From IMG/VR virus record IMGVR_UViG_3300045988_135371, positions 1 through 63,256 of that record: a DNA stretch of 63,256 bases. One strand, written 5' to 3'. Both the position numbers and the translations under genes were made by a program. This DNA comes from a virus. Below, in pieces: positions 349 through 62,880 of the stretch. The notes beneath the pieces were generated by a model. It saw only the letters and a list, made by a program, of their open reading frames with translations. It was not told the origin of the DNA and made no database searches. Positions within the stretch are counted from its first letter, which is position 1. Each line of letters starts with the position of its first letter.

Positions 349-813
349 TTATTTTCTTCCATGGTCATATATATCACCGAATTTATTCTCTATGAAAAAT
401 ATATAGAAAATCTTACCTCTTTGAAGTCCAACGAAAGACCTATTGTCCCCTGAAGCACGAAACGCATGAAGGTCGACTTCCCTTGTTACAAAAGAAGGCA
501 ACTTATCTTTCGGCTTAATGTCATTGTACGGAATAGGCTCCATGCCATATGAATGTCTATGTGACAACCGTATTCCATTCCATCCAAGCTCACACAGTTT
601 TTGAAGTCTTAATATAAAGTTAAGAAGGAACGAATGGTCTTTACAATCTTTTATATACTCATCCGATAGGTATTTAAAAGAGAACAGAGGATGGTCTATT
701 TCGGATAAATCACTTATTTCCCCTACGCTGACCTTATTGGAGTTTATAATACTCTGTATAAAAGAAAGCCCATCATCACTTTTCTTTTTCTTGCTTTTAC
801 CCTTTCCACTCAT
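349..813 (-). CDS. Unassigned 154-aa protein, putative toxin partner of the upstream Panacea-domain antitoxin
   Basis: 4-bp ATGA overlap with the DUF4065 gene. The lysine-rich N-terminus and a C-terminal LHAFRASGDNRSFVGLQRGKIFYIFFIENKFGDIYDH segment resemble a RelE/ParE-type strand-turn-strand core (weak, by eye). Confidence 0.45.
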   Translation of the reverse strand: MSGKGKSKKKKSDDGLSFIQSIINSNKVSVGEISDLSEIDHPLFSFKYLSDEYIKDCKDHSFLLNFILRLQKLCELGWNGIRLSHRHSYGMEPIPYNDIKPKDKLPSFVTREVDLHAFRASGDNRSFVGLQRGKIFYIFFIENKFGDIYDHGRK

Positions 814-1259
814 TTCTTCAACCGAGTTCTAAAAAATGTCTTAATTTTACTCTTTGGAATCACATTTCCTTCCCCGGTCTTAGTGTTTTTCCAAGGAGCT
901 TCACTGTGTGTCATATTCATAAGGCCAAGAGCGGAATATACTCCATACACCTTAAATACTTCATTGAATAGTGCTTCTTCTTCCTTGCTCTTAAATTCAA
1001 ATTCAAATTCGGATTCCAGGCGAATACCATTTTTACCGTTGCTTTTATATTCGTCATATACAGAAGGAACAACCGGACCATACATCCATGCTTCAATTTC
1101 CTCATCAAAGAGAGGTTCGCCGAAATATGCCAAATGAAATCCCTGTTGGTAGTATAACATCTTTTGGAGTTTCATGTTTGTCATAAACTCTTCTCCGTAA
1201 CTAACTTGTTCTGCTTTCTTTATAAGAAGCTTTGCTATATCTGATGCCTTGTATGCCAT
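810..1259 (-). CDS. Panacea / DUF4065 (SocA/GepA-like) antitoxin-domain protein
   Basis: NMKLQKMLYYQQGFHLAYFGEPLFDEEIEAWMYGPVVPSVYDEYK matches the DUF4065 signature. Confidence 0.85.
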   Translation of the reverse strand: MAYKASDIAKLLIKKAEQVSYGEEFMTNMKLQKMLYYQQGFHLAYFGEPLFDEEIEAWMYGPVVPSVYDEYKSNGKNGIRLESEFEFEFKSKEEEALFNEVFKVYGVYSALGLMNMTHSEAPWKNTKTGEGNVIPKSKIKTFFRTRLKK

Positions 1260-1271
1260 AATACATTTTCA

Positions 1272-1427
1272 TTACATTAAATATGAATATACGGGTATTC
1301 TTCTTTTATCAAGTTCCTCTTTGGAAATATCAGACAATACAGACTTCTTCCCTGAATTGGATTTATTCAAATCAGAGATGTTCTTTTTAGAAGAACGAGG
1401 TTCTTGTTTTAATCTTATATTACCCAT
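1272..1427 (-). CDS. Possible 51-aa basic small protein upstream of the Panacea gene
   Basis: ATG-started ORF below the track cutoff (MGNIRLKQEPRSSKKN...), ending 12 nt before the PanA-like start. No family recognised. Confidence 0.2.
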   Translation of the reverse strand: MGNIRLKQEPRSSKKNISDLNKSNSGKKSVLSDISKEELDKRRIPVYSYLM

Positions 1428-1613
1428 ACCACCTTTATTCTATAATATTGTAGAACGATAGAACGAACGACGCAATTTAAACATAACACTACCTAACAAT
1501 GTTTACTACATTGTTAATAATATTACTTTCGATACAAATTAAAGCAGAAATAAGGATGCAACCAAAATGTGAGACAGATTTCTTTGTAATTTAGACTGGT
1601 TATAAATAGTTTA

Positions 1614-1895
1614 TCACTTCTTTTTCCCAAATAGTTCAGAGTGGCTTCCAAGTCTAAGGATTTCAATAACATCGCTCCCCTCGTCAAACCATATAAGGAG
1701 AAAATCTCCCTCGATATGGCACTCCATGCAATCCTTGTACTCACCAATCAGGACATGAGCCTTATATTTCTCCGGAAGTTCTATTTCATTCTCCAACATA
1801 CGAAACACTTCCAGTAACTTGCTCAATTTGGATGGGTTGTTCCGGTATCGCTTAAAATCTTTTTTATACTGTGTTGAATAGTGCAACTGCTTCAT
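1614..1895 (-). CDS. yafQ: YafQ-family (RelE superfamily) type II toxin
   Basis: YSTQYKKDFKR ... LPEKYKAHVLIGEYKDCMECHIEGDFLLIW ... LGSHSELFG follows the YafQ pattern. Confidence 0.85.
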   Translation of the reverse strand: MKQLHYSTQYKKDFKRYRNNPSKLSKLLEVFRMLENEIELPEKYKAHVLIGEYKDCMECHIEGDFLLIWFDEGSDVIEILRLGSHSELFGKKK

Positions 1896-2147
1896 CTACT
1901 CACAAGATTTTATAAAGGCTTCCATGCTACTGGTATCAATAACCCCGGCATATTTACCGGAACGCGCCTCGTTTATGGCTGCAACCGTCTCTTCATTAGG
2001 TTCTGAATACATTGCATCCATTAAGGTGCTTTCTACAAAATTATTAAGGCTTCTGTTTGCCTTCTTAGCATGTTCCTGCAAGATTTGTAATAAATCCTCA
2101 CGCAAGCGGAACGAAGTTTGTTTTCTTACTACTGCTTCCATTTTCAT
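1896..2147 (-). CDS. Ribbon-helix-helix antitoxin (DinJ/RelB-like) cognate to YafQ
   Basis: Abuts the toxin start. N-terminal RHH-like segment KQTSFRLREDLLQILQEHAKKANRSLNNFVE. Confidence 0.7.
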   Translation of the reverse strand: MKMEAVVRKQTSFRLREDLLQILQEHAKKANRSLNNFVESTLMDAMYSEPNEETVAAINEARSGKYAGVIDTSSMEAFIKSCE

Positions 2148-2202
2148 ATTATTATTGTACTACATTGTATTGCAAATATAATACAATGCTCCAAATAATC
2201 AA

Positions 2203-2451
2203 TCATTCCGCCTTTATTTTTATACTTTTTCCACAGTTCGGGCACGTGATAGAGGCTCCATCGCTTTTGGGCTTTTCAAATAGTTCAGTTACCGAGCAAC
2301 CTATGGCATCCGCAATCTTGTTTAATGTTTCAACTGTCGGGTTACCATTAACCATATTGGATAAATTTACTCTATTTATTCCCATCTTATCGGCAAGTTC
2401 TGTTATAGTCATACCTTTTCCTTTGATAACTTCTTTGATTCTTAAATTCAT
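2203..2451 (-). CDS. XRE-family helix-turn-helix regulator with C-terminal CPNC motif
   Basis: MNLRIKEVIKGKGMTITELADKMGINRVNLSNMVNGNPTVETLNKIADAIGCSVTELF. The track start is TTG, so it was moved to the in-frame ATG at 2451. Confidence 0.8.
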   Translation of the reverse strand: MNLRIKEVIKGKGMTITELADKMGINRVNLSNMVNGNPTVETLNKIADAIGCSVTELFEKPKSDGASITCPNCGKSIKIKAE

Positions 2452-2509
2452 AATGTAATGTTTTGATTTACGATACAAATATACAAAATTTATTTATTGT
2501 AATGATATT

Positions 2510-3201: not shown

Positions 3202-3457
3202 GAATATCAATTATTCATTGTTCATAAGAGGGGCACATTTGCACCTATATTTTAATAGGAAAAACATAACTCTTAAACATTACTTTTTGAGAATTATTGC
3301 TATATTTGCATTGCATTGGGTTGTTCTTATGGAAATTAGAATTAATCAGAGAATTAAGATATAGAAAGCTGTGTAGGTCACAACCCCCTGCATGGCTTTC
3401 GCCTTTTTATCTCCGTATAAAGAAATACGGTACATCCTCGAACGAAAAGACTTTATT

Positions 3458-4153
3458 ATGGACAGCATTCAAATTTTTAAGAATGAGGCTTTCGGCGAAG
3501 TTAGAGTAGCCGGAACAAGTGAAAAACCTTTATTTTGCCTTGCAGATGTTTGCAAATCTTTAGGGTTGCGAGTAGATGCAGTGCAATCAAGATTATCAGA
3601 TGCCCCCATTCGGATTGGGGTCACTGATTCTCTTGGAAGAGAACAGCAAATGAATTTCGTTAACGAAAAGAGCTTGTACAAAGTTATCATGCGTTCAGAC
3701 AAGCCGCAAGCGGAACCTTTTCAAGACTGGGTATGCGGTGAAATCCTTCCTTCAATCCGCAAACACGGCATATACGCCACTGATAATGTTATAGACCAAA
3801 TACTGAATAATCCGGATTTCGGTATTGAACTTCTCACTAAGTTAAAAGAAGAACGGTCGGCACGCATCGAAGCGGAAAAGCAAGTAGCTGTGCTTACTCA
3901 TGTTAATAAGACCTATACATGCACGGAAGTAGCTAAAGAGTTGGGGCTTAAATCGGCAATTGAACTCAATAACCGTTTAAAAGAACTTGGTGTACAGTAT
4001 AAAGTTAATCAGACATGGGTTCCATACACCAAGTACGCAACTCTTGGTTGGTTTGATATAAAGCAAGAGGTTGCCGACAACGGTCATATTATCTACCATA
4101 GAAAGATTACTGGAATTGGCAGACAAGGCATAATCAACCTTATTAATTATTAG
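3458..4153 (+). CDS. Phage antirepressor, Bro-N domain plus KilAC/ANT-like C-terminal domain
   Basis: MDSIQIFKNEAFGEVRV...LFCLADVCKSLG...NEKSLYKVIMRSDKPQAEPFQDWVCGEILPSIRKHGIY is a clear Bro-N signature. The start was chosen at the domain boundary. Confidence 0.85.
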   Translation: MDSIQIFKNEAFGEVRVAGTSEKPLFCLADVCKSLGLRVDAVQSRLSDAPIRIGVTDSLGREQQMNFVNEKSLYKVIMRSDKPQAEPFQDWVCGEILPSIRKHGIYATDNVIDQILNNPDFGIELLTKLKEERSARIEAEKQVAVLTHVNKTYTCTEVAKELGLKSAIELNNRLKELGVQYKVNQTWVPYTKYATLGWFDIKQEVADNGHIIYHRKITGIGRQGIINLINY

Positions 4154-4159
4154 TTAAAT

Positions 4160-4194
4160 GTACTGCCGCTAAATCATTAGTTTAGCGGCAGTAC
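4160..4194. terminator. Bidirectional terminator hairpin between convergent genes
   Basis: 14-bp perfect stem GTACTGCCGCTAAA/TTTAGCGGCAGTAC with a 7-nt loop. Confidence 0.7.
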
Positions 4195-4210
4195 GTTTGC
4201 TGTATAATCT

Positions 4211-4576
4211 TTATTCTGTAACTTTCCGTATCTTATTAATTGCGTCATATTCAGAAAAGTCGATGCTATATCCTTCTCCTAACTTAGACAATTCATATTT
4301 GTATTTTTCAACCAACTTAGGGTAATTTTCTTCAAAGTCCAGCTTTAATTCAGAAATCTTAATTAATTCCTCAACATATAAGCGTTGATATATTTCAAAA
4401 GCCCTATCTTTATTCCCAAGTATAATTTGTTTATGAGCTTCATTAAAACTATTAACAGTTTTATTTTTAATTTTTCTTACATCATTAGTCATTCCCCATA
4501 CTTTGAAGAATAAAATAATTTGTAATGCCCCAAATACAATAACGATGATTGAAGTAAAAAATGCAATATTTTCCAT
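4211..4576 (-). CDS. Single-pass membrane protein, last gene of the repressor-AbiH operon
   Basis: N-terminal TM segment IAFFTSIIVIVFGALQIILFFKVWG, helical C-terminal part. Confidence 0.6.
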   Translation of the reverse strand: MENIAFFTSIIVIVFGALQIILFFKVWGMTNDVRKIKNKTVNSFNEAHKQIILGNKDRAFEIYQRLYVEELIKISELKLDFEENYPKLVEKYKYELSKLGEGYSIDFSEYDAINKIRKVTE

Positions 4577-4631
4577 AATGATATATTTTTAAATTATATG
4601 ATTTTTATTGTTTTCTAATTTGGAGATAAAT

Positions 4632-5198
4632 TTACTGACACGTATTCTTGTTTGCACGTTTTTCCTCTTGCTTTTTCTCATATTCTTTCGCTTTTTTCCT
4701 TTTTTGGGCTAATATTTTATAGCACTTATCAATAGATTTCGATTTAAATTTTATTTTATCAATTTCTGATTCTATACTATCAATTGTTCTAATATCATTC
4801 CCCAAACCCCATAAATAAGATTCTATAATTTCTAAGAAATATGCCGCTTTTTCCTCTGTGAAGTTTAGATTTAAAGCTGCCACACAAGTCCTCATCGTCG
4901 GAAAGAAAGCATTCCCATTACCACTTATCCCGTTACTGTATCCTCTATAAAACATATCCTCGGCAATGGCATCCCGGCTACTATTCGACATCATAGCTAT
5001 TTTCTTATCAACATCAATCGTTTTATAGATTTGCCATGCAACTAAGAAGCCAACCAATAGAGCCAAAAGTCCAACAATTACTCCCATATAATCAAAACCT
5101 AAACTTTCTCTTGGATAAGCTCGGCATAAAGCAAATATTGAAAACACAAGAGAAATACCCAATATACTATATATTATAATACGTTCAAATTTCCCCAT
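4632..5198 (-). CDS. Two-TM membrane protein with soluble C-terminal domain
   Basis: TM segments IIIYSILGISLVFSIFALC and VIVGLLALLVGFLVAWQIY. The track start is TTG, so it was moved to ATG at 5198. Confidence 0.6.
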   Translation of the reverse strand: MGKFERIIIYSILGISLVFSIFALCRAYPRESLGFDYMGVIVGLLALLVGFLVAWQIYKTIDVDKKIAMMSNSSRDAIAEDMFYRGYSNGISGNGNAFFPTMRTCVAALNLNFTEEKAAYFLEIIESYLWGLGNDIRTIDSIESEIDKIKFKSKSIDKCYKILAQKRKKAKEYEKKQEEKRANKNTCQ

Positions 5199-5214
5199 AT
5201 CATTATTCTTTTTA

Positions 5215-6033
5215 TTATAGTTTAATTTCTTCGCTATCCATATCAAAAGAATCTTCTTTAAACTTCATTTGATATAACTTTATGTTACAATTTCCCATAG
5301 ATTTTATGGTTTTCAATATAAGATTTTTATCAAAATCAGAACATCTTGCCCCGATGTATATACCCGTAACAGCGTTATCTGGAATGTCTATATATTGAGA
5401 CTCTTTTATTGGTTGTAATGTATATCTAACTTCTTCTTCTTGCTCCCACGACTTACTTTTTGAGGCAAAAATTCCCTTTAAGGTATCTATGGGGTTACTC
5501 TTTGCTAATAACATGAACTCGTCAGAATCTGGCGTCATCCGTTCATTGGAATATTTCACTTCAAAATTATTTGTAAATATATTCTTGTCTTTAAAACAAT
5601 TCCGTAATATTTTTGCATCATACTCTATACAAAATCCCTTATGTCCATTTGCATAATACGACCACATGCATTCTGAATCATACCTTTTTGATACAGAAAA
5701 AATCCCGACACTATCAACCATCATATTTAGCATGTTAGTGGTAGCTGAGATTTGCTTCTCCAATGATGCGGCTTGCTCCTTCAATGATACGATTGGGTTC
5801 TCCACAGCTACCCGCCGATTGTATTCTAACTCCTCATAAATTCGTTTCAAAGAGACGCAAGATTCATTGGGGTCGTTTAATCCGTCTTTCGTAGGAATAA
5901 ATAATTGATAGTTTTTTAGAGCGAGTAAATCACGATATATATTTCCCCTGTATTTATATAGGAGTTGAATGTCTCTTGAAAAGAAATCACGCTCCCAATC
6001 AGTAAGTTGTTCTTTCAATGCTTCTTCATCCAT
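5215..6033 (-). CDS. DUF2971-family protein
   Basis: LLYKYRG...LFIPTKDGLNDPNE, IFSVSKRYDSECMWSYYANGHKGFCIEYD and WEQEEEVRY match the DUF2971 blocks. Confidence 0.75.
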   Translation of the reverse strand: MDEEALKEQLTDWERDFFSRDIQLLYKYRGNIYRDLLALKNYQLFIPTKDGLNDPNESCVSLKRIYEELEYNRRVAVENPIVSLKEQAASLEKQISATTNMLNMMVDSVGIFSVSKRYDSECMWSYYANGHKGFCIEYDAKILRNCFKDKNIFTNNFEVKYSNERMTPDSDEFMLLAKSNPIDTLKGIFASKSKSWEQEEEVRYTLQPIKESQYIDIPDNAVTGIYIGARCSDFDKNLILKTIKSMGNCNIKLYQMKFKEDSFDMDSEEIKL

Positions 6034-6072
6034 ATTTATTTCCTTTAAATTTTTATCGTTTGTTAGCTGCTT

Positions 6073-7002
6073 CTACATTATGGTGACTTTATTGTAAAAG
6101 TCATTTAATCCATTGTCATTTACTGAATAAAAATGTATATTATTAAATTCTCTAATTTTTGCAACGTCTATTTCCATGTCAACTAATTGCCCATAAAATG
6201 CAGATGAGTTACTGATATTAAAAATACTTATTGAGGTATCCAATTCCCTTTTTTCTATCATTTTGAAAAATTCCCTAAAATAAGGGTGATCCGTTTTTCC
6301 CATCCCAAATCCAAAAAATATTACATGAGTAGAATTAGATAAATCAGATATAATCCCGCTATTGTATGAAGAACGAGCGGACTTTATCATGCACCTAAAT
6401 TCTTCTTTTACATTAATATCATCAATCCCCACTATAATAGGTGCAATTCTTCCATCGTATGAAGAACAAGTTTCTCCGTGGATATATCTTATATCCAAAT
6501 CTTTTATATTAAGATTCTGCTGTTCATTTAATGAGCAAGCTACATCGTTCAAATTAGTATAATTAAATGAATACACCCTACTATTTGATTGAACAGAAAT
6601 CCACTTCAATAGCTTAGATGATATGCTGCCAACATTATAAATGTATTTACCAAGATAATTTCTTTTATTATCGAAATATTTGTACTGTGACATAAATATG
6701 TTTAAGTCGTTAGATAATTTCTTATATTCAAGCTCAATATTTCGATTTTTTTCGATATTCATATTTCCGTATGAAAGAGCGTAATCCCTTAGGAACAGTT
6801 CAATATCAATCCAACCTGACTCTACACATTTTTTTATCATGGCATCAATCAATGTATTCGTAGGCTCAGGATGTTGCGTTTTTATATACATTTTATCAAT
6901 AAATGCCTTATACGAAGTATTTAACCCTAAATCAAGGTCAAACCCATTACCTATTACCAATATTATGCTTGGGTTATTATTTGTATTTCCCATAACATTC
7001 AT
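6073..7002 (-). CDS. abiH: AbiH-family abortive-infection protein
   Basis: IILVIGNGFDLDLGLNTSYKAF, FNYTN, YIHGE, IIVGIDD and IFFGFGMGKTDHPYF follow the AbiH (PF14253) block order. Confidence 0.8.
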   Translation of the reverse strand: MNVMGNTNNNPSIILVIGNGFDLDLGLNTSYKAFIDKMYIKTQHPEPTNTLIDAMIKKCVESGWIDIELFLRDYALSYGNMNIEKNRNIELEYKKLSNDLNIFMSQYKYFDNKRNYLGKYIYNVGSISSKLLKWISVQSNSRVYSFNYTNLNDVACSLNEQQNLNIKDLDIRYIHGETCSSYDGRIAPIIVGIDDINVKEEFRCMIKSARSSYNSGIISDLSNSTHVIFFGFGMGKTDHPYFREFFKMIEKRELDTSISIFNISNSSAFYGQLVDMEIDVAKIREFNNIHFYSVNDNGLNDFYNKVTIM

Positions 7003-7301
7003 TGTTTTAGTTTCAAATACCCATCTTTATCTACTATTACTGTGAGCTCCCGCAATTTTTCTGCACTATCCTTACTCTCTTCTATTAGCATATTGCCTTT
7101 CCCACGTAGTAGCCATTCGGATGAGATTTCGGGAAAGGCTAACAGTGTATTTAGTATTAGGTCAATTGACACACCCCTCTTCCCTATTAACTGATTATTC
7201 ACTGTAGTTTGTTCCATATTTATTTTATTTGCAAACGCATTTTTCGATAACTTATAGCTATCTATTAATTCATTAATCCTTTGTAAAACAAGCGATTTCA
7301 T
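6999..7301 (-). CDS. CI-type HTH repressor (Phage_CI_repr-like), probable prophage repressor
   Basis: LSKNAFANKINMEQTTVNNQLIGKRGVSIDLILNTLLAFPEISSEWLLRGKGNML. ATGA overlap with abiH. Faces the operator-bearing early promoter. Confidence 0.7.
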   Translation of the reverse strand: MKSLVLQRINELIDSYKLSKNAFANKINMEQTTVNNQLIGKRGVSIDLILNTLLAFPEISSEWLLRGKGNMLIEESKDSAEKLRELTVIVDKDGYLKLKQ

Positions 7302-7328
7302 ATTTAATTATTTAGAATGTTTATAAAT

Positions 7329-7342
7329 AAGTCATTTGACCT
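7329..7342. promoter_or_regulatory. Operator half-degenerate palindrome AAGTCATTTGACCT
   Basis: 13/14 match to the perfect palindrome 43 bp downstream. Confidence 0.5.
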
Positions 7343-7361
7343 AAAATAACTCATAATACAT

Positions 7362-7392
7362 TTTGTATATTAGGTCATTTGACCTATATTTG
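7362..7392 (+). promoter_or_regulatory. Rightward early promoter (Bacteroides-type -33 TTTG, -7 TATATTTG)
   Basis: TTTG at 7362-7365 and TATATTTG at 7385-7392 with a 19-nt spacer, 79 nt upstream of the first early gene. Confidence 0.6.
7372..7385. promoter_or_regulatory. Operator, perfect palindrome AGGTCA-TT-TGACCT
   Basis: 6-2-6 dyad lying between the -33 and -7 boxes of the rightward promoter. Confidence 0.6.
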
Positions 7393-7470
7393 CACTGTGA
7401 TTTAAATCAAACCATAAATCACGAGTGAAAAATTAAAGAAATAAACAAAGGTATTTTATTTAGTTTGCAA

Positions 7471-7683
7471 ATGGAGAAAATAATAGTTAAAAGAATTAAA
7501 GGCAGGGAACTTTCCGAGACATTGCGTTCAATGAAAGTAGGCGAAGAATTGACTATCAAAGAGAAAGATTTTCGTCCTACGAGTGTTTTCAACGCATGTT
7601 ACCGACTGAAAAAGGAAGGGTTCTTGTTTTCGTGCTCTGCGAAAAAAAATATTGACGGAAGTATAGTAACAAGATTAAGTTAA
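7471..7683 (+). CDS. First early gene, small protein in the Cro position
   Basis: The track start is TTG, so ATG at 7471 is used. No HTH recognised by eye. Confidence 0.45.
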   Translation: MEKIIVKRIKGRELSETLRSMKVGEELTIKEKDFRPTSVFNACYRLKKEGFLFSCSAKKNIDGSIVTRLS

Positions 7684-7704
7684 TTTAATAAGGAGGAATA
7701 AACT

Positions 7705-8178
7705 ATGGATAATACCCAAAAAAAGAATGAAGGATTGTTTGATGAGTTTTGCAATAATGCGAAATCCTTAACTATGGAAATTCGCAGATTAATACTACGG
7801 GCTGAACAGCGTGATAACGCTATGAATGATACAAAGGGCGTTATAGGACGTCCACTCCAATGTTTGAGTGAGATGTTGGAAATTGGAATGGCGAAGGCGG
7901 ACGTTGAAGCTGGGAAAGGTATTGATATGACTGTTGATTTTACAATAAAAACCGACAATGACAAATATAAAGTCAATGTTTGTGCTTTAGACAAAGAGCT
8001 AAGCGGAAAAATTCTTACTATGCTTTTAGAACTTAGAAAAGAAAAATTGCTTTCGATTTTACATTTCGGAAAATCAAAAAAGGAAGAATTAGACGACCTT
8101 ACATCATCCCTTTTCGACTTTTTAATGATTTTTCCAAAAGAAAATGAAACAATCAATAAACAAAGCAAGGGGGAATGA
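7705..8178 (+). CDS. Hypothetical early protein
   Basis: 157-aa ATG ORF, co-oriented and tightly packed. Confidence 0.55.
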   Translation: MDNTQKKNEGLFDEFCNNAKSLTMEIRRLILRAEQRDNAMNDTKGVIGRPLQCLSEMLEIGMAKADVEAGKGIDMTVDFTIKTDNDKYKVNVCALDKELSGKILTMLLELRKEKLLSILHFGKSKKEELDDLTSSLFDFLMIFPKENETINKQSKGE

Positions 8179-45368: not shown

Positions 45369-45400
45369 CAAATATACACACTATTTAGACTAATTCCAAA
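45369..45400 (-). promoter_or_regulatory. Late promoter copy P1 (-33 TTTG, -7 TATATTTG on the minus strand)
   Basis: Minus strand reads TTATTTGGAATTAGTCTAAATAGTGTGTATATTTGC with a 20-nt spacer. A 22-nt block is identical to P2. Confidence 0.65.
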
Positions 45401-47964: not shown

Positions 47965-50900
47965 TTATACTCTATTTGAAATCCAATTATAATCCGCACG
48001 TTGATTGGCTTTTTTCATCATTCTTCCGATGCTTTGCAATTGTTTGGTATTGCTTTCCATCTTCTTTTCAAGTCGGCTGTAATCATTGCTTACATTGACT
48101 ACAATTCCCTCTTCTCTCATATTTTTTAGTCGTTGCTCCAATAATCCGTAATCAGATGTAAGCCCTCTGCGGTCATAGATATATGACAAATCAGGGATTA
48201 CCTGTGCATGCGCCGGAAGGTCTACCAAAGTCGGCTTATCAGGAGTGATAAAAAGCCCGTTATCAGTAACAATCCCCTCTTTCTTGCCACCGTCACCGAC
48301 AATAGCCAAGCCGCCGGGGTGGTCTTTTGTTCCTTTGGCGTATTTGGGGATAGGCTGGGCGGCTATAATGGCAACTTGTGCGGCTCCCATAGCACCAACT
48401 AAAGCAGCAAGGACTAAATTAGGCAAAGCCTTTGTTATAGCTAAGGCTGTAGCTATTCCCGCCTGAACAATAGAATTGGCTTTATCCCATCTTGCTTGTT
48501 TTTCTTGTAATGCGGCCTTTTTCTTTTCAAGTTCCTCATTTTTAGCAGCTGTCTTATCCTCGGCTGCACGCTTGCGAAGCTCTGCTTCTTCCTTGGAGAT
48601 AGCCCCGTTCTCTTCAAGGGCTTCTATACGTTCTATTTCTTTATCGTATGCTTCATCATTGGCGTCCTGTTCTTTTTCAATATTTTCAATTCTCGCATCG
48701 TATATATCTGTCATTAACGAAGTTATTCCGTCAACAATTTTCCCTACACTTTTTAAAAGAGCTTCAAAACTTAATTTCCCGTTTTCTGCAACATCCGCAA
48801 TTATATCGGAAAGCCCTTCAAAAATCCCAGCTGTTTCACCAAGAGAATCTCTTGCGGCGCTATTCATTTCTAATAAACCTTCCTTGAATTTATCAGCCCA
48901 CTCCTCTCGCTTCTTATTTGCATCATCGTAGCTTATTCCGTCTATTTGCGCTTGCAGATTGACTAACCTATCTTCTAAATCCTGATATTTTTCATCAGCA
49001 GGGTCAAGTAATGACATCTCTGATTCAACTTCTTTTATAAGAGCCTGCAAACGTGCCTTAGAATACTTAACTCCAATATCATATAATTTCTTTTCGTAAT
49101 CCTCTTTACTTATTTCGCCTTCCGCATACTGCTTCTTTACAATATTAGCTTCTTCTAATGAAGACGTCTCTTGCCTGTCTACAATCCTATCTGTACTTGC
49201 CTCAATCAACCCAATCCTTTCTTGAAGATTTCTCATTATGAGAGAATTTTCCCGTTGCATGTACTTCATGCGTATCGCCACAACATCCTCTCCATTCTTT
49301 TCAGCGTCCTTTATTTCCGCATCACGCATCATATTATTGAGTTGTATTTGGAGATTAAGCCTTTTGTCTAATTCTTCATTCGAGTTTTCCCCAATGGAAG
49401 CCAATCTGTTTTCAAGATTTGTTTTTTCTATTTTAAGCAGTTCCTTATCGTACTTGTTGTTTACTTCCGCAATAGCCTTGTTTTTAAGTATTTCAAGGTT
49501 TTTCCGAAGTTCTATCTCTTTTTCGGAATTGCCTTTTATCTCTTTTATTTTGCCTTCATACTCCTTGTTGATTTCAGCTATCTCCCTTTCTCTACCGTCA
49601 GCAATCAATTCTATCCGGGATTTGGATAAGTCCTCTGTTATCCTCTTGATGTATTCAGCGTATTCTTCCGCTTTTCTTTTTTGCTCTTCATAAGCTTTAT
49701 CATTCTTACCTGGGTCATTAACCAATGCTGTAATATCAATAGAGGAAATGAGAGATTCTTGTCGTTTTTTTGCGTTGTCAATTTCCGTATTAGATATTGA
49801 TAATTTATCATTAATATCATCTACCTCATCCTTTAATCGCTTGATTCGGCTGCTATATGCAGCAATATAGTCCTTATTTTCTTCTTTCTTACTGTATTCT
49901 TCTAATTGATTTATTTCCTTTTGAATTTGATACCTATCTACAAGAAGTGAATTACGTTTACTCTCCATGTCAATAATTAATGAAGCACTTTCATATACCT
50001 TTTCGCTAATTGCTCTTGCTTGAGCTGTTGCAATAATTGCATTTTTAAGATTTTCGTATGATGTCGCTGCTTTTCCTGCTAATATTTGCTCTTTATCCAT
50101 GCCCTCAAAATAAGAAGGGTATTTATTTTGTAACTCGTCAACAGCGGCAATTCGCTCTTTCATAGAGCGTTTATTATTTTGTGTAGCATTGTATAACAAA
50201 TCCAACTCAGCTCTTTCCTTAACGCTATCAGAAATTCCCTTTCTCCGAGCATCTTCCAATTGTTTATAGGCGCTTGTTGTTTCTTCAAGCGCCTTTTTGC
50301 CCTTGAACAAACTTGCGACCCAGCCAATAACCTCATTCCCGTATGCAGACAGAAGTGTGATGCCTATTACCAACGCAGACTGCCAAGAAAACAAGCTCCC
50401 CAATAGCTGTTTCCAAACTGGAACAGCTTCTTTACCCTGCGCTTTCAAGGACTTAAACTCTTCACTTGCTCTTTTAAGCTCATCCGCAAACATGGGTAAG
50501 TTATTGGAAATAGCAAGGAAAAACTGATTGAAACTCATTGTTAAAGATGGTAGCTCTCGTAATAATTGATGTGTCTGTACGTTCAATCCGTTCCACAAAG
50601 ATGCATAATTCCCCACGTTCCTCTGATAATTGCCAAATTTGGCGTCAATTTCCTTTAACTTATCGTTTAAAGCGTTGGCCTGAGTTATTAAATTCTTTCC
50701 GATATTACTTTCCCGGTCAGCTTCACTTAAGGCCTTATATCGCTTCTGCAATTCGAGCATGGCGGCATTCATTTCATAATAGCTGCCGGAAGCTGAAATA
50801 ATTGCCGTGGAATGATTTTTTATCAAAGCTGAATATTGTTGATTTTGCGCCATCAGTTCCGTGTGCCTCTGTTTTAATAGCGAAGACTGCCTTATATATT

Positions 50901-51537
50901 CAGACAAAGTAATTTCCCCGTCTTTATAAGATTTTCCAAGAGCTTTAATATCTGCATCAATCTTTTTCATAGCCTCTTTATTGGCTATGGTATCAGCCGT
51001 TAACTTAGTAACTTCGCCATCATACGCTTGTACCGTATCAATAATAGCGGTATAGCTCATATTTGCCGCCTGCAATTGAGTGGATGCCTGGCTCATTATA
51101 TTACTTGCTGTTTGGGTGCTTTTAGCCGCATTATCCTGCGCCGAAGACACCTGGTTGGATGCGGAAGATAATCCGGCAAGCATATCACTTGCATTCTTGA
51201 TATTTTTGGCGAACTGTTCGAACAAAAGATTTAACTTTTGCAAAGATGACATTGAATTTAGTTGCTGGGATACTTGACGTAGCACGGTAAGTTGTTTCGC
51301 CTGAATAGATGCCATATTTTCCTGCGTCTTATTCAATTTCTCCAACAGCGAGGTATAATTACGTGCTTTTTGGGAAAGTTCATCAAATGTTTTGGGATTA
51401 GTTTTTACTCCTTGCGCCAACTCCTTAGCAAGCTCCACATAAGACCCTTTTGTACTATCAAATTCAAGACGGAGTTCCTTTAATTGTTGTACGGCTTTTT
51501 TGTCGACTACATCGGTAATTACATATTCGTTTGCCAT
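47965..51537 (-). CDS. Tape measure protein
   Basis: 1190 aa, long coiled coils with internal hydrophobic segments (LGSLFSWQSALVIGITLLSAYG, LVLAALVGAMGAAQVAIIAA). Confidence 0.85.
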   Translation of the reverse strand: MANEYVITDVVDKKAVQQLKELRLEFDSTKGSYVELAKELAQGVKTNPKTFDELSQKARNYTSLLEKLNKTQENMASIQAKQLTVLRQVSQQLNSMSSLQKLNLLFEQFAKNIKNASDMLAGLSSASNQVSSAQDNAAKSTQTASNIMSQASTQLQAANMSYTAIIDTVQAYDGEVTKLTADTIANKEAMKKIDADIKALGKSYKDGEITLSEYIRQSSLLKQRHTELMAQNQQYSALIKNHSTAIISASGSYYEMNAAMLELQKRYKALSEADRESNIGKNLITQANALNDKLKEIDAKFGNYQRNVGNYASLWNGLNVQTHQLLRELPSLTMSFNQFFLAISNNLPMFADELKRASEEFKSLKAQGKEAVPVWKQLLGSLFSWQSALVIGITLLSAYGNEVIGWVASLFKGKKALEETTSAYKQLEDARRKGISDSVKERAELDLLYNATQNNKRSMKERIAAVDELQNKYPSYFEGMDKEQILAGKAATSYENLKNAIIATAQARAISEKVYESASLIIDMESKRNSLLVDRYQIQKEINQLEEYSKKEENKDYIAAYSSRIKRLKDEVDDINDKLSISNTEIDNAKKRQESLISSIDITALVNDPGKNDKAYEEQKRKAEEYAEYIKRITEDLSKSRIELIADGREREIAEINKEYEGKIKEIKGNSEKEIELRKNLEILKNKAIAEVNNKYDKELLKIEKTNLENRLASIGENSNEELDKRLNLQIQLNNMMRDAEIKDAEKNGEDVVAIRMKYMQRENSLIMRNLQERIGLIEASTDRIVDRQETSSLEEANIVKKQYAEGEISKEDYEKKLYDIGVKYSKARLQALIKEVESEMSLLDPADEKYQDLEDRLVNLQAQIDGISYDDANKKREEWADKFKEGLLEMNSAARDSLGETAGIFEGLSDIIADVAENGKLSFEALLKSVGKIVDGITSLMTDIYDARIENIEKEQDANDEAYDKEIERIEALEENGAISKEEAELRKRAAEDKTAAKNEELEKKKAALQEKQARWDKANSIVQAGIATALAITKALPNLVLAALVGAMGAAQVAIIAAQPIPKYAKGTKDHPGGLAIVGDGGKKEGIVTDNGLFITPDKPTLVDLPAHAQVIPDLSYIYDRRGLTSDYGLLEQRLKNMREEGIVVNVSNDYSRLEKKMESNTKQLQSIGRMMKKANQRADYNWISNRV

Positions 51538-55530: not shown

Positions 55531-56874
55531 TTATCCTCCTACTCCTTGAGTGATACCTTCTATTACAGTAGCAAATGTGTCCTTTACAAATGCGGTCTTA
55601 TATTGCGACTTGATATAACACATCAGTCTCTTCTCTGCGATTACAGTCACGATATTCTTACGGAAATCGTCATTTTCCCATCCCATAGTAATAGACAATG
55701 CCCACAAGTCGCGAATATTCAAATATGAGAAATCTCCCATGATAAAATCACCTTGTTCTATCGCCGTAGTCGTTTCGACACGTAATCCTTGAATAAGCTC
55801 ATCTCCATAACGGAACGGGCGCAGATACTGCCCATTAGCATCCTTAGCTAACTGCATAGCCGCATAATCCAATGGGTTCATCAATACAAGGTTGGGACGA
55901 TATGCCATTTCGCTGGTAGATACAATTTGCGAATAAGCCGCCACAAGAGCATCAAACATGTTCGGTCTTTCAACGTAGAAAGTGGAAAGAGAAAATGCCG
56001 GCATATCTGAAGCAACTCCTTTTATTTCCCCACTGGAACCATTGCCTGACAAAATACCCTGTTCTTCTTTTATACCAAGTTTGTTTATCATTTCCGTTTC
56101 AACTTCATTGACGAAACTTGGGAAGTCAGACAAGGTTTCTTCTGTAAACTTGGCGGCAATTGCAACTTTGGCGGCCGTCACCGTTTTTTCCGTCAATGTC
56201 GCATCCATAAGGGGCTTTAATCCACCCTCAGGAACCCATGCAGCATCCCCATCCTTGCTTGTGTATTCCGCATAAACCAAAGCCCGATTGTTGGTGCTCG
56301 ATACATTTGCATATTTCCGAATGACAGTCTGCGCTCTCGGATTGACTGATAAATTTGGGTCAACCTCAATCCCGTAATGCGGAGCAAGAGACCCGGAAGT
56401 AATAGTCGCGGCATCTTTCTTTTCCAACACAAGATTTAATCCCAACTTATTGCCGGGAGCCGCCTGGCAAGCCGATTTCAAATCGAGGGACATAATACCT
56501 TTCTTGTCTGCGGTAATATACTCCTTGAGCTGTTCGTGTAGCTGCTCATAAACGGATTTAATCTTTACCTCTCCGTTTTTACCCACTTCAGTAGAAGCCT
56601 TTACACGTAAAATGGCATTCTCCAGTTCATTAACCTTCTCCTCGAAAGTCTTTTTGTCAATGCCGGCAAAATCCTTTTCCTTGATGTCGTTTATGGAATC
56701 AGCGGCATCCTTTATGGATTTGCGCAAATCTTCCAGTTTAACTTCATCCGAAAGATAGCCTTTCACTTGTTTTTCAAAAGCTTCTCCCATTTTTTCGTCC
56801 AAAGATTCAAAAAACTTTTTGTTTTCTTCAGACAGACCGGATGTGTCCATAAGTTCTAAAAATCCTAATTTCAT
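55531..56874 (-). CDS. Major capsid protein (HK97-fold family)
   Basis: 447 aa after the prohead protease, with an N-terminal coiled delta-domain-like region. Confidence 0.8.
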   Translation of the reverse strand: MKLGFLELMDTSGLSEENKKFFESLDEKMGEAFEKQVKGYLSDEVKLEDLRKSIKDAADSINDIKEKDFAGIDKKTFEEKVNELENAILRVKASTEVGKNGEVKIKSVYEQLHEQLKEYITADKKGIMSLDLKSACQAAPGNKLGLNLVLEKKDAATITSGSLAPHYGIEVDPNLSVNPRAQTVIRKYANVSSTNNRALVYAEYTSKDGDAAWVPEGGLKPLMDATLTEKTVTAAKVAIAAKFTEETLSDFPSFVNEVETEMINKLGIKEEQGILSGNGSSGEIKGVASDMPAFSLSTFYVERPNMFDALVAAYSQIVSTSEMAYRPNLVLMNPLDYAAMQLAKDANGQYLRPFRYGDELIQGLRVETTTAIEQGDFIMGDFSYLNIRDLWALSITMGWENDDFRKNIVTVIAEKRLMCYIKSQYKTAFVKDTFATVIEGITQGVGG

Positions 56875-57617
56875 ACCGATTTTAGTTTTAATAAATTACA
56901 TAATGATTTTTCTTCCGTTTTGCCATTACTGCCGGCTTCCTTCTCTTTGGGTGGAACTGGTATAACACTGTCCGGCCTAAAAGATGCAAGTGACATTGCT
57001 TTGGCTATAATTTTTTGCAAACGCAGTTGCTTAGACATACTCATATTTTTACATAACGAGGAAATTTCACTGCTTAAATCCTTATAAGAATTTTCATAGT
57101 CTTCAATTGACTTCAACCCCAGATACTCGGTTTCCCCATTGCAACCTATCGACACGATGGAAACCTCATAAAGTTTCACTTCGCCAACAAGGAAGTCATC
57201 TCCGGTCTCATTGTAACCGCATTTTTCCCACACATAACTGAACCCTATCGAGAACTGGTTGAGTGTCCCGGATTCCAGCTGTTTTATGGCACGGTCTCCA
57301 AGGTCAATCTCATCTATCCGCGCCTCGAAGTAGAGACCCTTATCGTCTTCCCTCAGTTCTGTAATGGCACCGATAGGCTCGCTCATGTCATGCATCCACA
57401 ACAGCAGTATCTTGTCATTCGCACCGCTCTGCGGCCCACGTTCCTGGATGCTTTTTGCAAAACAACCTTTCAGAAGGACATCGCCCGCCTTGTCCCGGTT
57501 ACCGAACACCGCCGCATATCCGCTTATCGTCCGGCTTCCGGGGCTATATTGGACATCTTTTGAGTTAATGGAGAATAATTTATATTGCATCCCCATTTTA
57601 TCTTTGTATTTATTCAT
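56871..57617 (-). CDS. HK97-family prohead protease
   Basis: ISGYAAVFGNRDKAGDVLLKGCF ... LLWMHD ... PIG. Start placed at ATG 57617, overlapping the portal stop (the track start is TTG). Confidence 0.8.
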   Translation of the reverse strand: MNKYKDKMGMQYKLFSINSKDVQYSPGSRTISGYAAVFGNRDKAGDVLLKGCFAKSIQERGPQSGANDKILLLWMHDMSEPIGAITELREDDKGLYFEARIDEIDLGDRAIKQLESGTLNQFSIGFSYVWEKCGYNETGDDFLVGEVKLYEVSIVSIGCNGETEYLGLKSIEDYENSYKDLSSEISSLCKNMSMSKQLRLQKIIAKAMSLASFRPDSVIPVPPKEKEAGSNGKTEEKSLCNLLKLKSV

Positions 57618-58974: not shown

Positions 58975-59086
58975 ATACAAAGCAGGAGTGACAGCAAATG
59001 AATGCGGCCACTCCCATATATTTAGTGTTTTAGTCCATTTATACGGTTGCGTGCAACTTCACACGCTTGTAGTGACCCTACGGGTG

Positions 59087-59118
59087 CAAATATATATATT
59101 ATTTAGACTAATTCCAAA
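59087..59118 (-). promoter_or_regulatory. Late promoter copy P2 (-33 TTTG, -7 TATATTTG)
   Basis: Minus strand reads TTATTTGGAATTAGTCTAAATAATATATATATTTGC with a 20-nt spacer. Lies between terL and portal. Confidence 0.65.
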
Positions 59119-62860: not shown

Positions 62861-62880
62861 ATAAACATAAATTTTAGTTT

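Follow-up and report, generated by a model that had tools for sequence, protein, structure and literature searches.

Layout of the repressor-linked block

The window, i.e., the whole stretch of 63,256 nucleotides that was analysed, belongs to a temperate Bacteroidales siphophage, and is recognised as phage by its terminase, portal, major capsid protein, tape measure and integrases. The block considered here lies in the lowest-GC stretch of this genome. It is bounded by an operator-controlled divergent promoter region and, at its far end, by a hairpin, and encodes on the minus strand, in this order, an HTH protein, an AbiH-family protein, a DUF2971 protein, a two-TM protein (TM2) and a one-TM protein (TM1). 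The features of the locus are as follows:

3392–4153, plus strand: Bro-N/KilAC antirepressor (Ant); Bro-N 3e-18 and ANT 1e-14 (Pfam), PHROG 130 1e-63
4160–4194, no strand: hairpin, probable bidirectional terminator, where the TM1 and antirepressor genes converge
4211–4576, minus strand: TM1, 121 aa; one N-terminal TM helix and a helical C-terminal domain
4632–5198, minus strand: TM2, 188 aa; two N-terminal TM helices and a soluble, Lys-rich C-terminal part of about 130 aa
5215–6033, minus strand: DUF2971 protein, 272 aa; PF11185, PADLOC PDC-S31
6073–7002, minus strand: AbiH-family protein, 309 aa; PF14253
6999–7301, minus strand: HTH protein, probable immunity repressor, 100 aa, allele 'A'; PHROG repressor families 8 and 2328, 1e-7 to 3e-6
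7331–7343, no strand: operator O2, second repeat copy TAGGTCAAATGAC, 29 nt 5′ of the HTH start codon
7371–7386, no strand: operator O1, 16-bp palindrome TAGGTCAAATGACCTA, in the early-promoter spacer
7362–7392, plus strand: early (rightward) Bacteroides-type promoter, exact match to TTTG-N19-TATATTTG

An earlier note on this DNA had described five co-oriented, tightly spaced genes of low GC, and both observations are borne out. All five ORFs lie where that note placed them, the HTH stop codon overlaps the AbiH ATG in the sequence ATGA, and the remaining gaps measure 39, 16 and 55 nt. The GC fraction is 0.310 for the cassette and 0.394 for the window, with 0.7% of equal-sized windows being as low. 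The hairpin has a perfect 14-bp stem with a dG of −25.4 kcal/mol (z = −7.55; 0 of 200 shuffles as stable) and a U/T tract that is weak on both strands; it is taken here as a probable bidirectional terminator, which the earlier note had called strong. Beyond it, the antirepressor gene is convergent with the cassette and delimits a variable slot on that side; this gene is present in only some relatives.

The HTH protein gives only weak matches to Pfam (HTH_37, weak). It does face an operator-controlled early promoter, as had been proposed. The Bacteroides-type promoter pattern occurs nine times in the window against 2.5 expected, and the occurrence at 7362–7392 is predicted to drive orf7465 and the early genes. 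The palindrome TAGGTCATTTGACCTA lies within its spacer, a second copy is found at O2, and the GCAAATATA (−7 box) junction is kept in all related loci. O1 is restricted to loci with the HTH_A allele (the window, L001, L003, L004, and L094), other HTH alleles being accompanied by other repeats, and O2 co-varies with the allele in the same manner. The related phages have at least four HTH alleles, and a distinct set of operator repeats goes with each; this co-variation with the repeat sets of the divergent promoter region supports the view that the HTH protein behaves as a phage immunity repressor. The small repressor would bind TAGGTCAAATGAC(CTA) repeats, and since the spacer of the rightward early promoter contains one of them, binding there would shut off the lytic genes.

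As for expression of the block itself, its minus strand contains no complete Bacteroides-type promoter and no terminator-like site between genes; a lone −7-like motif at 5562–5569 on this strand lacks the −33 TTTG. A search for a canonical leftward Bacteroides promoter for the repressor transcript also found none. The Abi gene is positioned 3′ of the immunity repressor and co-oriented with it, with neither terminator nor promoter intervening, and the hairpin that ends the block is the only terminator-like structure. From their position, the four downstream genes are most simply expected to be read through from the repressor gene, with which they are probably co-transcribed. Because the cargo is on the same strand, with no internal terminator-like site or complete promoter, it is probably expressed at a low constitutive level in lysogens, and the block would constitute a lysogeny-expressed accessory arm of the phage.

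Families and folds of the cargo proteins

The AbiH protein matches PF14253 with E = 1e-25 and 91.8 bits (cut-off 30.9), residues 14–259 aligning with positions 1–259 of the 260 in the profile, and the same domain is present in 97 of 97 homologs. The mechanism of AbiH had been described as unknown, which is out of date: lactococcal AbiH is predicted to be SIR2-like (PMC13064643), and the top PDB fold matches to our AF2 model (pLDDT 89) are the defence SIR2 proteins SIR2-HerA, ThsA, and DSR2 (8sub, 7uxt, and 8y13; E = 1.8e-5 to 3e-3, prob 0.99–1.0, TM about 0.45–0.5). GNGFD18–22, N147, and H175 are invariant in an alignment of 43 sequences, and the protein thus has the Gly-rich NAD loop and the conserved Asn and His of a SIR2-like Rossmann fold. 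N147 and H175 presumably represent the catalytic Asn and His of SIR2. We regard AbiH as a candidate NAD+-consuming abortive-infection effector, which upon sensing of a phage would deplete NAD+ and abort the infection.

With AbiH of Lactococcus lactis (PF14253) the window protein shares the full-length Pfam match, the SIR2-like fold and a stand-alone occurrence in most genomes, but the sequence is very distant, the PADLOC AbiH model covering only residues 14–42 (E = 4e-6), and the gene is here phage-borne and fused translationally to the repressor gene. AbiH has precedent as a single-gene system (PMC13064643, PMC12322248). Genomic context, taken as a proxy, supports such independence here too: AbiH follows the repressor with no DUF2971, TM2, or TM1 gene in L001, L261–264, and L271, and 43 of 77 homologs lack a gene close by on the downstream side.

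The DUF2971 family can no longer be considered uncharacterised, because the DUF2971 protein of the Lactococcus system Aristaios has been validated as a single-gene system (PMC11381338), for which a block of phage transcription is reported. The window protein matches PF11185 (E = 1.7e-12; 48.9 bits, cut-off 22) and the PDC-S31 model PDLC04990 (E = 1.5e-38; residues 21–268 on profile positions 5–256 of 259). Y26/Y28/R34, Y127, H131, and E199-x-E201 are invariant in the alignment, and conserved Tyr and ExE residues of a modified H-Y-E active site are described for the family (PMC12522546). A Foldseek search of the PDB with the model (pLDDT 91) gave no significant match, solved ADP-ribosyltransferases included, a sequence search of the PDB gave no hit, and the matches in BFVD are uncharacterised viral proteins only. 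Since no solved ADP-ribosyltransferase is significantly matched, the proposed activity rests on two papers together with the conserved Y and ExE residues. The protein is a candidate ADP-ribosyltransferase-like effector, and may act as a toxin of this type that arrests the infected cell. Family membership, the full-length PDC-S31 match and the Tyr and ExE residues are in common with Aristaios; unlike Aristaios (316 aa, Lactococcus plasmid, Abi-like), the window protein has 272 residues, resides in a Bacteroidales phage, often has TM2 as the next gene, and gave no significant Foldseek match to an ART fold. DUF2971 is the sole cargo after the repressor in L007, L008, and L091, and close downstream genes are lacking for 49 of 74 homologs.

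The ORF of TM2 was listed as 4632–5246 from a TTG codon, but the likely start is the ATG at 5198. Its helices comprise approximately residues 7–25 and 35–58, and the protein is predicted to reside in the inner membrane with a cytoplasmic C-terminal domain. No family was found for TM2 in Pfam, PHROG, or PADLOC. The single helix of TM1 (approximately residues 4–25) carries the motif IVFGxLQIILFFKVWGMTNDV, and with 224 relatives in IMG/VR, TM1 represents a widespread phage family, members of which lie directly 3′ of S24-type repressors in L175 and L214. From position and topology, we guess that TM2 most likely serves in superinfection exclusion or another membrane-acting form of lysogenic conversion, and that TM1 is of the same general kind.

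Phages also encode ADP-ribosyltransferases for host takeover, e.g., Alt, ModA, and ModB of T4. Such enzymes would suit a reading in which the cargo is not anti-phage, but serves host takeover, counter-defence or addiction, with the TM proteins acting in lysis timing or lysogenic conversion. Two toxin-antitoxin modules at the block's end of the element point the same way, in that addiction-type cargo is present there. We nevertheless consider this reading very unlikely. The genes occupy the repressor strand, opposite the early lytic operon and apart from the lysis and structural genes, anti-phage phenotypes have been shown for the homologous families (PMC11381338, PMC12322248), and the slots of sister phages hold other defence-family genes (PDC-S35 TIR, protease domains).

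Cargo exchange within the phage lineage and co-occurrence beyond it

We compared about 25 related phage contigs that have the flanks orf7465 and orf2925/orf2618 in common. Nearly every combination of cargo is encountered, with more than ten different ones within 1.5–4 kb. Slots with AbiH read HTH-AbiH-other TM protein, HTH-AbiH-TM2-TM1, HTH-AbiH-61 aa-lipoprotein, or HTH-AbiH-lipoprotein; those with DUF2971 read HTH-DUF2971 alone, HTH-DUF2971-TM2(-TM1), or HTH-protease-DUF2971-TM2; and neither enzyme is present in HTH-151 aa-TM2(-TM1) and HTH-TIR(PDC-S35)-TM1. The complete order AbiH-DUF2971-TM2-TM1 is found only in the window among the related contigs. The PDC-S35 cargo of sister phages is a CAP12-type TIR (E = 1.7e-71), and the protease is trypsin-like and related to RT-protease and LmuA domains. 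Cargo thus turns over strongly in this short interval between conserved phage genes, as expected for an antiviral hotspot, and the slot is enriched in known or candidate defence genes (AbiH, PDC-S31, PDC-S35, and the protease) alongside many cargo genes of no known family.

The closest relative differs from gene to gene:

HTH: L271, 98%; the AbiH of L271 is only 49%
AbiH: L269, 99%; the TM2 of L269 is only 77%
DUF2971: L005, 99%; L005 lacks AbiH
TM2: L250, 98%; L250 lacks both enzymes
TM1: L010/L171/L267, 98%

This pattern identifies the arrangement in the window as a recent recombinant, and a recombination scar of about 65 nt from the 3′ end of DUF2971 is preserved just 5′ of TM2 in L250 and L171. 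We suggest that related phages recombine at short conserved junctions, so that the repressor allele moves together with its operators and every cargo gene moves on its own, and that the five-gene order arose when an HTH-AbiH-DUF2971 segment joined a TM2-TM1-Ant segment at the DUF2971/TM2 boundary. Acquisition as one cassette, which had been proposed from the low GC, does not agree with genes that come and go independently in the lineage and differ in their nearest relatives.

Outside the lineage, 80 AbiH loci and 76–80 DUF2971 loci from unrelated genomes were surveyed. DUF2971 is found within 8 kb in 2 of 80 AbiH loci, both in obvious defence islands, and AbiH is near none of 80 DUF2971 loci. 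The TM1 and TM2 families are absent from all 80 AbiH loci, and occur in 4 and 1 of 76 DUF2971 loci, respectively. A TM protein is the downstream neighbour in 2 of 34 cases for AbiH and 6 of 25 for DUF2971, against a background of about 18%, and no membrane partner is conserved for either enzyme. Seen from the TM genes, 2 of 23 TM2-family loci contain DUF2971; among 79 TM1 loci, 3 contain DUF2971 and 2 contain AbiH. Neither co-occurrence nor gene order is conserved across unrelated genomes as would be expected for a single multi-gene system. The earlier note had suggested an undescribed multi-gene abortive-infection or superinfection-exclusion system, and had named a lack of co-occurrence elsewhere as refuting it; such a lack, but for the 2 of 80 AbiH loci, is what the survey found. 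The integrated five-gene candidate is largely refuted by these counts (2/80 and 0/80).

One integrated system from HTH to TM1, acquired as a cassette and with cytosolic enzymes signalling to membrane effectors, would account for the tight spacing, shared orientation, single terminator and uniformly low GC, and the AbiH-DUF2971-TM2 adjacency does recur in L002, L269, and L270. With every sub-combination in sister phages, including either enzyme by itself and TM genes that lack both, different nearest relatives for each gene, essentially no AbiH/DUF2971 co-occurrence beyond the lineage, few TM neighbours of AbiH homologs (the 2 of 34 above), and published tests in which both enzyme families work alone (PMC11381338, PMC12322248), such a system is extremely unlikely.

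A smaller module, composed of DUF2971 and TM2 with or without TM1, or of TM2/TM1 partnering any upstream enzyme, would leave AbiH as a separate neighbour. TM2 is the next gene after DUF2971 in the window, L002, L005/L092, L010, and L269, and it also follows a 53%-identical DUF2971 allele, P0101, in L267/L268; a 46% allele is accompanied by a distant TM2 in L095, and L188 has TM1-DUF2971 (367 aa)-TM2-family in an unrelated phage context. TM1 is near DUF2971 in L098, L100, L102, and L103, and the DUF2971 remnant 5′ of TM2 indicates that these two genes formerly adjoined each other in other phages. Because the association recurs in several lineages, the pair or trio may be functionally linked, and the module could then be a genuine multi-gene variant of single-gene Aristaios. 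We find it doubtful, however, since DUF2971 occurs without TM2 or TM1 in L007, L008, L091, L096, L265, and most of the 76 loci, and TM2 without DUF2971 in L003, L004, L250, L252, L253, and L255, the last four of which lack AbiH as well. DUF2971 is also infrequent at TM2-family and TM1 loci (2/23 and 3/79), gene order varies, Aristaios protects alone (PMC11381338), and the co-location can be explained by both genes being common cargo of the same hotspots.

It is rather unlikely that TM2, with or without TM1, acts in the inner membrane as the common effector, anchor or sensor for whichever cytosolic enzyme is inserted between it and the repressor; if it did, Bacteroidales phages would have a two-part defence architecture of the plug-and-play type. 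The enzymes concerned are the SIR2-like AbiH, the ART-like DUF2971 protein, the PDC-S35 TIR, and the trypsin-like protease.

The likely explanation, in our view, is that the cargo consists of separate, swappable accessory genes in a variable prophage defence/moron slot behind the repressor, in what is probably a lysogeny-expressed arm. Four independent accessory genes (morons) would then follow the repressor on the same strand as far as the hairpin.

Relation to known repressor-linked designs

Conserved synteny downstream of cI has been noted for BstA and RexAB (PMC8585504). In analogy to lambda cI-rexA-rexB and BTP1-like BstA, the candidate Abi genes of the window share a strand with the immunity repressor and lie directly 3′ of it, with a presumed shared repressor promoter and expression in the lysogen, and the operon includes a gene for a membrane protein, as it does in lambda with rexB. 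None of the five proteins shows RexA, RexB, or BstA homology in PADLOC or Pfam, and the resemblance is architectural only. The cargo in the window is a string of separately exchangeable genes whereas rexAB is a fixed pair, and the Bacteroidales host has its own promoter type.

Rousset et al. 2022 (PMC9122126) describe antiviral hotspots in prophages and satellites, namely those of P2 and P4 and a Vibrio K139-like one that lies between cI and integrase. As for P2/P4-type hotspots, the slot occupies 1–5 kb between conserved phage genes, has a high cargo turnover, often more than one system per hotspot, and known defence genes beside unknowns. Unlike them, it belongs to a different phage family and phylum, starts at the repressor stop codon (the ATGA overlap), includes many small membrane proteins and lipoproteins as cargo, and in the relatives of the window the repressor/operator allele is itself swapped. 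A repressor-linked defence slot of known design, here in gut Bacteroidales phages, is the best reading.

The block does not reveal a new defence system, but a well-delimited, highly variable accessory slot directly behind the immunity repressor of temperate Bacteroidales phages that form a common family in the human gut. Searches for defence genes can start efficiently from such slots, and because the anchors (repressor, orf7465, and orf2925/orf2618) are short and conserved, even short metagenomic contigs are enough to recover the slot. Among the cargo of no known family are proteins of 151, 206, 221, and 61 aa, TM2, several lipoproteins, and TM1, which is very widespread; in a phylum with few tested defence systems, all of these are reasonable candidates for a new function in exclusion or defence. 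The slot also provides a natural experiment, in which AbiH-like and Aristaios-like genes pass between phages as single units, and the four repressor/operator specificities could serve as a basis for sorting these phages into immunity groups.

The gene block and its repressor

Judged from sequence, the window represents the genome of a temperate tailed phage, or a prophage, with the following genes:

59140-61020, large terminase
57610-58980, portal
55531-56874, major head protein
47965-51537, tape measure
10220-11332, tyrosine integrase 1
61652-62899, tyrosine integrase 2

One phage genome thus carries two tyrosine-integrase genes, the first lying within the early operon and overlapping a DNA-methyltransferase-like gene (11289-12281). 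Megablast of the structural half returned just two unannotated faecal phage contigs at ~75% and no annotated relative, and blastn of the block under study against GenBank phages gave a 55-nt stretch of Bacteroides phage BS-TP2 as the sole match. The block and the gene facing it are as follows:

6999-7301, minus, HTH protein, 100 aa
6073-7002, minus, AbiH, 309 aa
5215-6033, minus, DUF2971 protein, 272 aa
4632-5198 (counted from ATG), minus, TM2, two TM helices, 188 aa
4211-4576, minus, TM1, one TM helix, 121 aa
3392-4153, convergent with TM1, Bro-N/KilAC antirepressor (Ant)

The earlier note had described five co-oriented, tightly spaced genes of low GC that end at a hairpin, all of which is confirmed in the sequence. 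HTH and AbiH are joined by an ATGA overlap, the later gaps are 39, 16 and 55 nt, and a perfect 14-bp hairpin with a poor T tract (4160-4194; dG -25.4 kcal/mol, z=-7.55) closes the block between the convergent TM1 and Ant genes. The GC content is 0.310 vs 0.394 for the window, among the lowest 0.7% of equal-sized windows.

The window is predicted to use Bacteroides-type promoters, as the pattern TTTG-N18-22-TAnnTTTG occurs 9 times vs 2.5 expected. A sigma-70 scan of 3300-8300 (23 sites vs 24.3 expected) is uninformative for Bacteroidales, and the TTTG/TAnnTTTG pattern was used instead. A perfect plus-strand Bacteroides promoter (7362-7392; TTTG-N19-TATATTTG) is located in the 163-nt region between the divergent HTH and orf7465 genes. 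This region holds two copies of TAGGTCAAATGAC, the first of which is extended into a palindrome, TAGGTCAAATGACCTA (7371-7386), that sits exactly in the 19-nt promoter spacer. In related phage contigs, the region is split at a conserved -7 box (GCAAATATA, minus strand), such that the orf7465-proximal half tracks the orf7465 allele and the HTH-proximal half tracks the HTH allele. At least four HTH alleles (HTH_A, the window's own, to HTH_D; 29-41% identical) each have their own operator repeats: TAGGTCAAATGAC in all HTH_A loci, AATCGTTTTCGATT-type repeats in HTH_D loci instead, and still other sequences in the HTH-proximal half of HTH_B and HTH_C loci. Across related contigs, HTH allele and repeats co-vary, a comparison which gives good support to the 100-aa HTH protein as the immunity repressor and as the regulator of the early promoter. 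The -7 box is the junction common to all relatives (7302-7464 region; L001-L010, L094-L096). The immunity region is itself modular: orf7465 and HTH alleles assort independently, and in the window the HTH_A repressor stands next to the orf7465 type that elsewhere accompanies HTH_D.

A weak PADLOC match to 'Control_protein' (E=0.013) suggested that the HTH protein could be a dedicated AbiH antitoxin or C-protein. This is ruled out, since the same allele precedes a TM2'-DUF2971 pair in one locus (L094) and a 49%-identical AbiH in another (L271), and since the HTH operators are placed in the early lytic promoter.

The search for a leftward promoter of the repressor transcript gave nothing beyond an isolated TACCTTTG (7446-7453) that lacks a -33 element. 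Given the short spacing, and as no terminator-like or complete promoter-like site separates the block genes, we infer that the cargo, i.e., the four genes after HTH, is co-transcribed with the repressor. Elsewhere in the window, near-identical Bacteroides-type promoters (TTTGGAATTAGTCTAAATA...TATATTTG) are found on the minus strand upstream of structural-gene blocks (45369-45400 and 59087-59118), and the longer stretch that they have in common suggests joint control of late genes by one element.

AbiH and DUF2971 as members of known families

AbiH has a full-length Pfam AbiH match (E=1e-25). With the PADLOC AbiH model, which is centred on the lactococcal protein, the match is confined to the N-terminal GNGFD region. 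A profile search against PDB sequences gave nothing significant. The AlphaFold2 model computed from 43 homologs is confident (pLDDT 89), and its sole significant matches among solved structures are the defence-associated SIR2 domains of SIR2-HerA/Nezha, ThsA and DSR2 (E=1.8e-5 to 3e-3). The invariant residues G18-N-G-F-D22, N147 and H175-G176 are, by our reading, the sirtuin Gly-rich loop, Asn motif and His-Gly motif, respectively. Lactococcal AbiH has likewise been assigned to SIR2 in a 2026 review, with NAD+ depletion proposed (PMC13064643), and in L. lactis and S. thermophilus the AbiH gene by itself confers protection (PMC13064643, PMC12322248). The AbiH protein described here is a member of this known single-gene family.

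The same holds for the DUF2971 protein, which matches PF11185 and also the PADLOC candidate PDC-S31, the latter along the full length of the protein (E=1.5e-38). The lactococcal DUF2971 protein Aristaios has been validated by experiment as an Abi-like system of a single gene, for which an ADP-ribosyltransferase (ART) fold and disturbance of phage transcription have been reported (PMC11381338, PMC13064643), and DUF2971 has been grouped with the H-Y-E clade of ARTs, close to DarT and AbiGi, in a bioinformatic survey (PMC12522546). Y127 and E199-x-E201 are invariant in our alignment. The model is confident (pLDDT 91); a Foldseek search with it gave nothing significant in the PDB and, in BFVD, uncharacterised proteins alone, and sequence and profile searches against the PDB gave no significant match to solved ARTs. 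The published fold is thus unconfirmed by these searches, and the chemistry of the DUF2971 protein rests on the literature.

A variable slot behind the repressor

Searches of IMG/VR, metagenomes and a gene-position index recovered ~25 distinct contigs in which the flanks orf7465 and orf2925/orf2618 are conserved and the contents of the slot behind the repressor differ. The full cargo order of the window was not found in any other recovered contig.

Slot contents after HTH in related contigs
AbiH, different 206-aa TM protein, lipoprotein: L001
AbiH, TM2, TM1: L003, L004
AbiH, 61 aa, lipoprotein: P0004 (17 contigs)
AbiH (48% allele), lipoprotein: P0007
AbiH, DUF2971, TM2, lipoprotein: L002, L269, L270
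DUF2971 alone, then 61 aa and lipoprotein: L007, L008, L091
DUF2971, TM2, TM1: L010, L267, L268
Trypsin-like protease, DUF2971, TM2: L005, L006, L092
Distant TM2, DUF2971: L094
151-aa protein, TM2, with or without TM1: L171, L250
221-aa multi-TM protein, TM2: L253
Protease, TM2: L255
TIR protein (PF10137; PDC-S35, E=1.7e-71), TM1: L173

Per-gene identities among related loci are incongruent.

Closest relative of each window gene
HTH: L271, 98% (AbiH of L271 only 49%)
AbiH: L269, 99% (TM2 of L269 only 77%)
DUF2971: L005, 99% (without AbiH)
TM2: L250, 98% (without AbiH and DUF2971)
TM1: L010/L171/L267, 98%
Ant: L171/L250/L267/L271, 100%

Furthermore, ~65 nt of the DUF2971 3' end are retained directly upstream of TM2 in L250 and L171, which marks the junction that joined an HTH-AbiH-DUF2971 segment to a TM2-TM1-Ant segment in the window. 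Given the incongruent identities and this remnant, the block was assembled piecewise. Acquisition as one cassette, proposed earlier from the low GC, is not borne out, since the closest relative differs for each gene; low GC is a property common to hotspot cargo.

The locus is best read as a defence/moron hotspot next to the repressor in phages of gut Bacteroidales, and as such of a known kind; two cargo genes belong to known single-gene defence families, and the other two encode uncharacterised membrane proteins. In P2/P4 and other prophage antiviral hotspots, a variable slot similarly lies between conserved phage genes, in one case between cI and integrase in Vibrio phages (PMC9122126). In lambda cI-rexAB and BTP1 cI-bstA, abortive-infection genes lie 3' of the immunity repressor and on its promoter (PMC8585504), as do the putative Abi genes here, presumably on a common promoter. 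PADLOC found no homology to RexAB or BstA; the locus would resemble those systems in how it works, without belonging to their families.

Sister phages carry other defence-type genes in the same slot or in a tail-module moron island:

L173 5170-5934, CAP12/Pycsar-type TIR protein (PF10137; PADLOC PDC-S35, E=1.7e-71)
L255 5260-5979 and L005 5269-5988, stand-alone trypsin-like protease, similar to protease domains found in RT-protease and LmuA
L098 7148-7963, Aga helical-REase-like protein (E=1.8e-32)

Co-occurrence and the membrane proteins

The suggestion of one undescribed AbiH + DUF2971 + membrane-protein system finds no support in loci outside the lineage. Among 80 AbiH-family loci from different GTDB species (8 kb flank each), DUF2971 is present in two, once 4.8 kb from AbiH inside a type I R-M island (L017) and once separated from it by a recombinase gene (L089); conversely, AbiH is found in 0/80 metagenomic DUF2971 loci. 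Iterative searches placed the TM1 and TM2 families in 0/80 AbiH loci, and in four and one, respectively, of 76 DUF2971 loci. A co-directional gene follows within 150 nt for 34 of 77 AbiH anchors and 25 of 74 DUF2971 anchors, and has a predicted TM helix in 2/34 and 6/25 cases, the background rate of TM proteins in the surveyed loci being ~18%. Since the homologs are almost never found together elsewhere, an outcome that the earlier note itself named as refuting, a novel multi-gene system is not supported by these comparisons.

Neither TM2 nor TM1 matches a family in Pfam, PHROG or PADLOC. In each, the helices lie at the N-terminus, and the C-terminal remainder is soluble and probably cytoplasmic. 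TM1 occurs very commonly in phages (224 relatives in IMG/VR, spread widely over gut phage contigs); its N-terminal TM segment (IVFGILQIILFFKVWGMTNDV) is highly conserved, its C-terminal domains vary, and it often lies directly 3' of CI-type/S24 repressors (L175, L214). Co-occurrence for TM1 and TM2 was assessed from 90 viral loci; among 79 TM1 loci, 23 have a TM2-family gene within 6 kb, two have AbiH and three DUF2971.

The sole part of the original idea that survives, as a hypothesis, is a functional module of DUF2971 with TM2 or TM1. These recur together more than other pairs, also where DUF2971 identity has dropped to 53% and 46% (P0101, L095). The strongest hint that DUF2971, TM1 and TM2 might be functionally linked comes from L188, a different phage context, where co-directional genes (4190-8272) encode in turn an ATPase-like protein (577 aa), TM1 (46% identity), a DUF2971 protein (367 aa), a TM2-family protein (244 aa) and a lipoprotein. 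We nevertheless consider such a module improbable, because the same hotspots commonly carry both partners, and either is also found without the other. In metagenome loci of another Bacteroidales phage type (L097-L103), DUF2971 (38-42% identity) occurs in a plus-strand moron island that lies between the gene for the tape measure and other minus-strand virion genes, which probably encode tail proteins, together with TM1 homologs, other small TM proteins and 250-358-aa proteins of no known function. This island looks like a second hotspot location served by the same cargo pool.

As a hotspot with independent cargo, the locus would most likely work as follows. In a lysogen, repressor bound to the operators O1 (7371-7386) and O2 (7331-7343) would shut the early promoter, and its transcript would read on through AbiH, DUF2971, TM2 and TM1 up to the hairpin, with AbiH probably translationally coupled to HTH via the ATGA overlap. 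When another phage infects, the SIR2-like AbiH would be switched on to consume NAD+, and the ART-like DUF2971 protein to modify a nucleic-acid or protein target; as we infer the biochemistry, either would be enough alone for abortive infection. TM2 and TM1 would most plausibly act at the inner membrane, in superinfection exclusion or other conversion functions. For cargo without a known family, the hotspot is a useful discovery handle.

The same element end carries two probable toxin-antitoxin modules and a further small HTH gene (349-2478, minus strand):

810-1259, minus, SocA/Panacea-domain antitoxin (E=1.3e-22)
349-813, minus, its unassigned 154-aa partner, the ORFs overlapping by 4 nt
1614-1895, minus, YafQ/ParE-type toxin (E=2e-28)
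1896-2147, minus, 83-aa antitoxin-like ORF, directly followed by the toxin gene
2203-2478, minus, 91-aa HTH protein

In related prophages, HTH_3 and a YafQ toxin adjoin the host ProRS gene (L265).
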